Part shown: in pieces, positions 1,908 to 4,551 of the stretch
How the letters are laid out: each line of letters begins with the position of its first letter
Position numbering within the stretch: position 1 is the first letter of the stretch
Virus record (IMG/VR): IMGVR_UViG_2706794684_000014
From: a virus
Taxonomy: Duplodnaviria > Heunggongvirae > Uroviricota > Caudoviricetes
Length of the DNA stretch: 4,551 nucleotides
Strand: one strand, 5' to 3'
The notes under the pieces: generated by a model
The model's input: the letters and a program-made list of their open reading frames with translations, nothing else
What the model was told of the DNA's origin: nothing
Databases searched by the model: none
Program-made: the position numbers and the translations under genes

Positions 1908-3345
1908 ATGGGTAAAGGCAGCAGTAAGGGGCATACCCCGCGCGAAGCGAAGGACAACCTGAAGTCCACGCAGCTGCTGAGTGTGATCGATGCCATCAGC
2001 GAAGGGCCGGTTGAAGGTCCGGTGGATGGATTAAAAAGCGTGCTGCTGAACAGTACGCCGGTGCTGGACAGTGAGGGGAATACCAACATCTCCGGCGTCA
2101 CGGTGGTGTTCCGGGCAGGTGAGCAGGAGCAGTCACCGCCGGAGGGATTTGAATCCTCCGGCTCCGAGACGGTGCTGGGTACGGAAGTGAAATATGACAC
2201 GCCGATCACCCGGACCATCACGTCGGCAAACATTGACCGACTGCGTTTTACCTTCGGTGTACAGGCACTGGTGGAAACCACCTCAAAGGGAGACAGGAAT
2301 CCGTCTGAAGTTCGCCTGCTGGTTCAGATACAGCGTAACGGTGGCTGGGTGACGGAAAAAGACATCACCATTAAGGGCAAAACCACCTCGCAGTATCTGG
2401 CCTCGGTGGTGGTGGATAACCTGCCGCCGCGCCCGTTTAATATCCGGATGCGCAGAATGACGCCGGACAGCACCACAGACCAGCTGCAGAACAAAACGCT
2501 CTGGTCGTCATACACCGAAATCATCGATGTGAAACAGTGCTACCCGAACACGGCACTGGTCGGCGTACAGGTGGATTCGGAGCAGTTCGGCAGCCAGCAG
2601 GTGAGCCGTAATTATCATCTTCGCGGGCGCATTCTGCAGGTGCCGTCGAACTATAATCCGCAGACGCGGCAATACAGCGGTATCTGGGACGGAACGTTAA
2701 AACCGGCATACAGCAACAACATGGCCTGGTGTCTGTGGGATATGCTGACCCATCCGCGCTATGGCATGGGGAAACGTCTTGGTGCGGCAGATGTGGATAA
2801 ATGGGCGCTGTATGTCATCGGCCAGTACTGTGACCAGTCGGTGCCGGACGGCTTTGGCAGCACGGAGCCGCGCATCACCTGTAATGCCTGGCTGACCACA
2901 CAGCGCAAGGCGTGGGATGTGCTCAGTGATTTCTGCTCGGCGATGCGCTGTATGCCGGTATGGAACGGGCAGACGCTGACGTTCGTGCAGGACCGACAGT
3001 CGGATAAGGTGTGGGCCTATAACCGCAGTAATGTGGTGATGCCGGATGATGGCGCGCCGTTCCGCTACAGTTTCAGCGCCCTGAAAGACCGCCATAATGC
3101 CGTTGAGGTGAACTGGATTGACCCGGATAACGGCTGGGAGACGGCGACAGAGCTTGTGGAGGATACGCAGGCCATTGTCCGTTACGGTCGTAACGTCACG
3201 AAGATGGATGCCTTTGGCTGTACCAGCCGGGGGCAGGCACACCGCGCCGGGCTGTGGCTGATTAAAACGGAACTGCTGGAGACGCAGACCGTGGATTTCA
3301 GCGTGGGTGCTGAAGGGCTTCGTCATGTACCGGGCGATGTCATTG
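1908..3345 (+). CDS. J: Tail tip host-specificity protein J (lambda gpJ-like), N-terminal segment, interrupted by the N gap at 3346
   Basis: A long ORF with strong coding character starts MGKGSSKGHTPREAKDNLKSTQLLSVIDAISEGPVEGPVDGLKSVLLNSTPVLD..., which matches my recollection of the lambda gpJ N-terminus. The I-J spacing of 60 nt is the same as in lambda. The track's apparent stop at 3608 is an artefact of reading through the N run. Confidence 0.9.
3259..3345 (+). repeat. Direct repeat, copy 1: 87 nt immediately 5' of the gap, about 92% identical to 3602..3688
   Basis: By direct comparison, tgattaaaacGgaactgctggaGacgcagaccgtggaTttcagcgtgggTgcTgaagggcttcgTcatgtAccgggcgatgtcattg differs from the post-gap copy at 7 positions. 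All are third-codon-position changes, and both copies encode [29 protein letters not shown]. Confidence 0.9.
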
Positions 3346-3601
3346 NNNNNNNNNNNNNNNNNNNNNNNNNNNNNNNNNNNNNNNNNNNNNNNNNNNNNNN
3401 NNNNNNNNNNNNNNNNNNNNNNNNNNNNNNNNNNNNNNNNNNNNNNNNNNNNNNNNNNNNNNNNNNNNNNNNNNNNNNNNNNNNNNNNNNNNNNNNNNNN
3501 NNNNNNNNNNNNNNNNNNNNNNNNNNNNNNNNNNNNNNNNNNNNNNNNNNNNNNNNNNNNNNNNNNNNNNNNNNNNNNNNNNNNNNNNNNNNNNNNNNNN
3601 N
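3346..3601. other. Run of 256 N: assembly or scaffold gap, not biological sequence
   Basis: Uninterrupted n characters. The flanks overlap each other (see repeat feature), and the gap length shifts the J reading frame from window frame 0 to frame 1. Confidence 0.95.
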
Positions 3602-3688
3602 TGATTAAAACAGAACTGCTGGAAACGCAGACCGTGGACTTCAGCGTGGGCGCAGAAGGGCTTCGCCATGTGCCGGGCGATGTCATTG
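3602..3688 (+). repeat. Direct repeat, copy 2: 87 nt immediately 3' of the gap
   Basis: See copy 1. It encodes the same peptide in the post-gap J frame. Confidence 0.9.
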
Positions 3689-4551
3689 AAATCTGTGATG
3701 ATGACTATGCCGGTATCAGCACCGGCGGGCGCGTGCTGGCGGTAAACAGCCAGACCCGGACGCTGACGCTCGACCGTGAAATCACGCTGCCATCCTCCGG
3801 TACCATGCTGATAAGCCTGGTTGACGGAAGTGGCAATCCGGTCAGCGTGGAGGTTCAGTCCGTCACCGACGGCGTGAAGGTGAAAGTGAGCCGTGTTCCT
3901 GACGGCGTTGCTGAATACAGCGTGTGGGGGCTGAAGCTGCCGACGTTGCGCCAGCGCCTGTTCCGCTGTGTGAGTATCCGTGAGAACGATGACGGCACGT
4001 ATGCCATCACTGCCGTGCAGCATGTACCGGAAAAAGAAGCCATCGTGGATAACGGGGCGCACTTTGACGGCGACCAGAGCGGCACGGTGAATGGTGTCAC
4101 GCCGCCAGCGGTGCAGCACCTGACTGCCGAAGTCACCGCAGACAGCGGGGAATATCAGGTGCTGGCGCGCTGGGACACGCCGAAGGTGGTGAAGGGGGTG
4201 AGCTTTATGCTTCGCCTGACCGTGGCAGCGGATGACGGCAGTGAGCGGCTGGTCAGCACGGCCCGGACGACGGAAACCACATACCGCTTCACGCAACTGG
4301 CGCTGGGACGGTACACGCTGACAGTCCGGGCGGTAAATGCCTGGGGACAGCAGGGCGATCCGGCGTCGGTATCGTTCAGGATTGCCGCACCGGTAGCACC
4401 GTCGCGGATTGAGCTGACGCCGGGCTATTTTCAGATAACTGCCACGCCGCATCTTGCGGTTTATGATCCGACGGTACAGTTTGAGTTCTGGTTCTCGGAA
4501 ACGCGGATTACCGATATCAGGCAGGTTGAAACCACAGCCCGCTACCTTGGC
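3604..4551 (+). CDS. J: Tail tip host-specificity protein J (lambda gpJ-like), continuation after the gap, 3'-partial; runs off the window end
   Basis: The frame (codons from 3604) is open to the window end. The translation [66 protein letters not shown]...[32 protein letters not shown]... matches my recollection of the central region of lambda gpJ, including a fibronectin-III-like stretch. It is missing from the ORF track only because it has no stop in the window and its first in-frame Met lies well inside the segment. Confidence 0.88.

Follow-up and report, generated by a model that had tools for sequence, protein, structure and literature searches.

Gene layout of the window

The window, a stretch of 4,551 nt, carries the tail genes L, K, I and J in that order on one strand, with J interrupted by a run of 256 N. 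The following features were assigned from Pfam domains, RefSeq annotation, the list of open reading frames and comparison with reference loci.

1-610, + strand: tail gene L, 202 aa, truncated at its 5' end by the start of the scaffold (Pfam Phage_tail_L; RefSeq "phage minor tail protein L, partial [Shigella sonnei]")
616-1278, + strand: tail gene K, a C40/NlpC-P60 peptidase lacking the JAB/MPN motif because of a private in-frame deletion of 81 nt (Pfam, RefSeq, reference comparison)
1176-1847, + strand: tail assembly gene I; the long open reading frame starts at 1176 and the public call is 1275-1847 (list of open reading frames, Pfam, protein match)
1908-3345, + strand: 5' part of J, A-type allele, 479 aa, reaching the end of the 3345-bp contig (Pfam FNIII-A_GpJ and Phage-tail_3; 100% identity to J of loci L004, L006 and L007)
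3259-3345, + strand: A-type copy of the 87-nt overlap, of which 3269-3345, after the fork, is A-specific (alignment)
3346-3601, no strand: scaffold gap of 256 N, most likely no real sequence (public record; reference mapping)
3602-3688, + strand: b-type copy of the 87-nt overlap, with which the 950-bp contig begins (alignment)
3602-4551, + strand: middle part of J, b-type allele, 316 aa in the frame from 3604, running off the end of the scaffold (Pfam Ig_J and Ig_J_second; identical to locus L022 over 950 of 950 nt)

The whole window is identical to a public scaffold of Shigella sonnei, CWUB01000225.1 (4551 bp; GCA_001247645.1). The scaffold comes from a short-read draft assembly and joins a contig of 3345 bp to one of 950 bp through 256 N. 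Public gene calls divide J into 1908-3345 and 3602-4551, and RefSeq lists the products before and after the gap as two separate partial proteins of Shigella sonnei, WP_148978017.1 (479 aa) and WP_148978018.1 (316 aa). Since the window is the entire scaffold and both partial proteins are on record, the N run belongs to the scaffold as deposited, where it divides two independently assembled contigs. A literature look-up for the accession returned nothing.

The interrupted gene is recognizable as gpJ, the tail tip or host specificity protein J (TipJ) of phage lambda. The domains PF24801, PF13550, PF24421 and PF24489 are distributed over its two parts, and the window shares with lambda both the gene order L, K, I, J and the domains FNIII-A_GpJ, Phage-tail_3, Ig_J and Ig_J_second. 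At the DNA level it is 95-100% identical to annotated gpJ genes of E. coli and Shigella prophages, matches for which the gpJ designation derives from RefSeq. Unlike lambda gpJ, the J of the window is incomplete, being split by the gap and running off the end of the scaffold, and its 5' and middle parts come from different alleles.

Two J alleles on either side of the gap

An ungapped alignment of 87 nt pairs positions 3259-3345 with 3602-3688 and shows seven mismatches (offsets 10, 22, 37, 49, 52, 64 and 70; G/A, G/A, T/C, T/C, T/A, T/C and A/G). All seven are at the third codon position in the J frame from 1908 and all are synonymous, both copies encoding the same (L) plus 28 residues; random placement of seven differences among 87 sites would put every one at a third position with P = 2.7e-4. 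This pair is the only long direct repeat of the window (92% identity, spacing 343), the remaining repeats reported by the search (21-22 nt, 73-77% identity) being noise. The first-pass annotation had described the two flanks as a single stretch of J differing only at synonymous third positions, and had proposed that J reads in frame once the overlap is collapsed; realignment agrees with the former, and translation across a junction of 3345 with 3689 agrees with the latter. That annotation missed a shift of frame: the two copies start 343 nt apart, which is 1 mod 3, and as deposited the two parts of J are therefore read in different frames. Both contig ends are pure J to the last base, without foreign termini.

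Several origins of the repeated segment were considered and rejected. A genuine tandem duplication disagrees with the out-of-frame offset of 343, with the synonymous nature of all seven differences (P as above), with the correspondence of each copy to a separate natural allele, and with reference J genes, none of which has two copies. The pair does not resemble the template and variable repeats of a diversity-generating retroelement, as the substitutions are all synonymous and adenine-specific in neither direction, and no open reading frame for a reverse transcriptase is present among the L, K, I and J genes of the window. Target-site duplication by an insertion sequence or transposon was likewise rejected, the repeat being 87 nt long and 8% diverged, with contig ends that are J to the last base.

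The pre-gap part of J (1908-3345) has no mismatches to loci L004, L006 (CP110404.1, Shigella sonnei strain S17BD05200; PMC11125565) and L007. Beyond the overlap, J in these three loci and in two partial proteins of S. sonnei (P0144 and P0148) keeps to the same allele, here called A-type. Compared with the post-gap contig, this continuation has 55 mismatches in 950 nt (94.3% identity) and at least eight amino acid differences.

All departures of the pre-gap contig from L004 outside J are private changes, located in L and K. At 555-557 in L the window has CGC where L004, E. coli EC2 (L001) and N3 (L002) all have GCA, changing KFRNN to KFPHN, a difference equivalent to a compensating pair of +1 and -1 indels. 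K lacks 81 nt at 796-797 (27 aa, EIVALVHSHPGGLPWLSEADRRLQVQS) that are present in the same three references; the missing stretch contains the JAB/MPN metal-binding motif and is bracketed by two GTGA microrepeats. The exact 220-aa K protein is recorded only for CWUB01000225.1, and its 81-nt loss may be genuine, as an in-frame deletion in a prophage undergoing decay, or may stem from faulty assembly. Besides this deletion, the change at 555-557 and single-nucleotide differences at 1071 and 1167 are the sole private differences from the S. sonnei prophage A. The possibility that the pre-gap contig is itself a patchwork of A and b sequence was rejected, because the changes private to it (the 81-nt deletion and those at 555-557, 1071 and 1167) occur in none of L004, EC2 and N3.

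The post-gap contig represents a second allele, here called b-type. It has no mismatches over 950 nt to the IMG/VR locus L022, two over 950 nt to E. coli EC2, which is its best match among finished genomes (99.8%), likewise two over 950 nt to L025, and two over the 874 nt covered by L035. The b-type genes have 5' halves of their own: over the 1351 nt upstream of the overlap, L022 differs from the pre-gap J at 49 positions and EC2 at 35 (42 of 1438 for EC2 when the overlap is included). An origin of the post-gap contig as a consensus mixture, considered because A-type bases occur at 3711 and 3722 amid b-type sites, was rejected, as 19 natural b-type loci share the haplotype and L022 matches at 950 of 950 positions. 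The b allele was not found in a complete S. sonnei chromosome: look-ups of P0003, P0018, P0088, P0001 and P0002 gave only other alleles (82-97%). The protein search works with clusters at 90% and does not distinguish A from b. Neither half of J had a match above 97.5% in the phage collection.

The earlier suggestion that the two sides of the gap may come from different prophage copies is supported at the level of J alleles, in that the pre-gap side is 100% identical to prophage A, the post-gap side deviates from the S. sonnei continuation at 55 of 950 positions, and the locus that matches the post-gap side perfectly has a 5' half that deviates from the pre-gap J at 49 of 1351. The two copies of the overlap are also, as had been supposed, diverged natural alleles and no recent duplication, the pre-gap copy being found exactly in S. 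sonnei-type chromosomes and the post-gap copy exactly in 62 IMG/VR loci and E. coli EC2.

The 87-nt segment is present once in each of the eight reference J loci (L001, L002, L004, L005, L006, L007, L008 and L010), none of which has a duplication or insertion at this site. Mapped onto the complete E. coli genomes L001 and L002 and onto L004 and L006, which are 4.8-Mb chromosomes carrying prophage A, the end of the pre-gap contig and the beginning of the post-gap contig both fall on these 87 nt (11985-12071 in L004, for example), so that the flanks of the gap overlap on a segment that is single-copy in finished references. When the overlap is collapsed, none of 5,426 complete E. coli genomes matches the resulting hybrid of pre-gap and post-gap sequence over its full length at more than 98.5%, and each half alone has an exact or nearly exact natural counterpart.

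Multicopy J genes and joins in other scaffolds

J-like sequence occurs at a median of three places per complete E. coli genome, with a maximum of 14, and the protein database holds thousands of partial J proteins on contigs of 0.8-1.6 kb, one fragment cluster alone having 3,697 members. Lambda-like J genes are multi-copy and mosaic in Escherichia and Shigella, so that short-read assemblies break there. A pair of contigs that truly overlap would be expected to receive a single 'n' from SSPACE, as in the scaffolds L035 and L044, and not 256 N.

The scaffold was likely produced by the Sanger pipeline, in which Velvet assembly (k of 66-90% of read length) is followed by SSPACE and by GapFiller with 120 iterations (PMC5320598). 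Its output includes 299 S. sonnei assemblies with a mean of 405 contigs and neighbouring CWW* accessions, and CWUB01 was not found among the accessions in the available part of its list. According to the pipeline authors, SSPACE and GapFiller are greedy tools that "can lead to false joins", an N gap is placed between joined contigs, and a link requires at least five read pairs between two contigs; they also state that their evaluation set was screened for contamination (PMC5320598). The window resembles false joins of this type in having an N gap between small contigs of a multi-copy prophage gene, with flanks that overlap on references.

The break points themselves coincide with none of the features sought. 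Neither contig end (3345 and the equivalent of 3259) matches a polymorphic site in the allele panel, and the causes of breakage known from De Bruijn graphs (forks of k-1 due to single-nucleotide differences, boundaries of insertion sequences, and tips) were tried and none fits. The final 87-mer of the first contig and the initial 87-mer of the second are homologous k-mers, and 87 is a value of k that the pipeline allows for 100-nt reads (66-90% of read length), which is possibly a coincidence.

In a scan of IMG/VR, 62 loci had the b-type version of the 87-mer and 19 the A-type version; three scaffolds, L025, L035 and L044, have both. An A-type segment matching L004 at 100% adjoins a segment with the b-type 87-mer in both L035 and L044, with a single 'n' between them; the J coordinates overlap by about 1.1 kb at these joins, which are therefore plainly non-collinear. 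Further single-'n' joins between J fragments of different alleles occur in L080, L085 and L087. The false joins in L025, L035, L044, L080 and L087 follow the same pattern as the window, with flanks that are different natural alleles, and differ from it in that their gaps are a single 'n' whereas that of the window is 256 N; the attribution of the window to the Sanger pipeline is only likely. Overlapping L-K-I-J fragments of differing alleles strung together by single 'n' were noted at L025 8833-13607, L035 1782, L044 1065, 2987 and 4254, L080 7274, and L087 1745 and 5710, and this class of artefact seems to be widespread in IMG/VR proviruses derived from isolate genomes.

Two of these scaffolds also contain J copies in which the alleles share sequence. 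In the b copy of L035, the 377 nt from about 2892 to 3268 are the same as in the A allele, and divergence sets in at 3269. Segment 11486-13606 of L025 is an uninterrupted contig of 2121 nt that is like the pre-gap J from about 2313 to 3268 (about 950 nt, two mismatches) and b-type thereafter. Both switch to b-type exactly at 3269, which is the first mismatch of the overlap. Such stretches (2892-3268 in L035; 2313-3268 in L025) beside sequence that is 6-8% diverged, with a sharp switch at 3269, are what is seen in mosaic genes of lambdoid prophages, which arise by homologous recombination between co-resident prophages. In the window the switch coincides with a contig break and a duplicated segment, which makes it an assembly join and not a demonstrated recombination joint. 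The existence of a stretch common to two J copies that fork at 3269 makes it plausible that the link from the pre-gap to the post-gap contig runs through a shared repeat.

Origin of the gap

The gap is very probably a scaffolding artefact that joins two alleles of J and hides no biology. The 3345-bp contig carries L, K, I and the 5' part of J of the common S. sonnei prophage (the A allele), which the scaffolder would have linked by read pairs to a 950-bp contig carrying the middle of another J allele (b), writing its estimate of the gap length as 256 N. Because both contig ends span an identical 87-nt segment of the gene, the gap most likely represents no real sequence. What looks like a repeat is this segment of J in two allelic versions, both maintained as functional by purifying selection, each in a separate phage lineage. 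Two J-like templates must have been present among the reads, and the strain presumably holds two J-bearing elements. That the N run most likely stands for no missing sequence, as the first-pass annotation had held, accords with the single occurrence of the 87 nt in the eight reference loci, with the overlap of the flanks in four of them (L001, L002, L004 and L006), and with the frame restored by the collapse. The positive estimate of 256 N, which differs from the single 'n' of L035 and L044, speaks against an artefact.

There is a small chance that the isolate carries a rearranged J, either an A/b recombinant formed with a newly acquired lambdoid prophage or a joint of J_A and J_b through about 256 nt; if so, the scaffold records recent recombination between prophages in a host-range gene and no assembly error. 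It is quite unlikely that the scaffold order is right and that J is a genuine recombinant, A-type to about 3268 and b-type from 3269, with only 3269-3345 and the N run artefactual and derived from the reads of a second, A-type copy of J. A J of this composition may exist, given the uninterrupted contig of L025 (11486-13606), which has two mismatches to the pre-gap J before 3269 and two to the post-gap contig, and the 377 nt of A allele upstream of 3269 in the b copy of L035 would make read-pair links through it legitimate. However, L025 derives from short reads that were scaffolded in a similar way and may itself be a chimera of graph paths, every complete S. sonnei-type chromosome and every partial J protein of S. 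sonnei that was examined goes on as A-type, and no finished E. coli genome has the hybrid at above 98.5%. Such a recombinant would still need a second J template, so that the gap is an artefact either way.

A real rearrangement with some 256 nt of true sequence is unlikely, since the contig ends are pure J, their divergence is only synonymous, and the frame would break. In its specific form, J_A would be truncated near 3345 and followed by about 256 nt of unknown sequence and by J_b from the equivalent of 3259, as a joint between prophages or an insertion that leaves a frameshifted J pseudogene. This structure is highly improbable, although the scaffolder estimated a positive gap of 256 and not an overlap, and although S. 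sonnei is rich in insertion sequences and prophage remnants, examples being IS1 beside the tail genes (L004 and L010) and fusions of J (L008 and L010). None of the eight reference J loci has it, the contig ends show no foreign termini, the gap length is only an estimate, and comparable scaffolds are non-collinear artefacts. Target-site duplications of insertion sequences are short and identical, and the diverged 87-nt pair is unlike them. It is hardly credible that the sample was mixed or contaminated and that the b-type contig came from a second strain (E. coli) rather than from a second prophage of the same genome. The nearest finished match of the post-gap contig is indeed E. coli EC2 (99.8%), and the exact I protein is mostly found on contigs of 20-50 kb, for example in L007, which is unbroken over 25 kb and 100% identical to the pre-gap J. 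Against this, the independent assemblies L035 and L044, A-type at 100% to L004, also have the b-type 87-mer, the evaluation set was screened for contamination by the pipeline authors, and the scaffolder requires at least five read pairs to link two contigs (PMC5320598).

As a scaffolding artefact, the junction is of importance for data hygiene only and adds no new biology, being an ordinary artefact of draft assembly in a well-known phage gene. Taken at face value, the scaffold would suggest that the host-specificity gene is chimeric or duplicated. Since public scaffolds of Shigella and E. coli contain further cases of the artefact, joins across N runs in these genes should be distrusted in the typing of tail-fibre and J alleles, in counts of prophages and in analyses of recombination.

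Two finished chromosomes contain lambdoid remnants that have decayed and carry deletions inside them. In locus L008 (8668-11326), an open reading frame fuses lysozyme to J beside sit-like ABC transporter genes. In L010 (9297-11383), L is fused across K and I to J at about position 3138 of the window, and IS1 is present in the tape-measure region.
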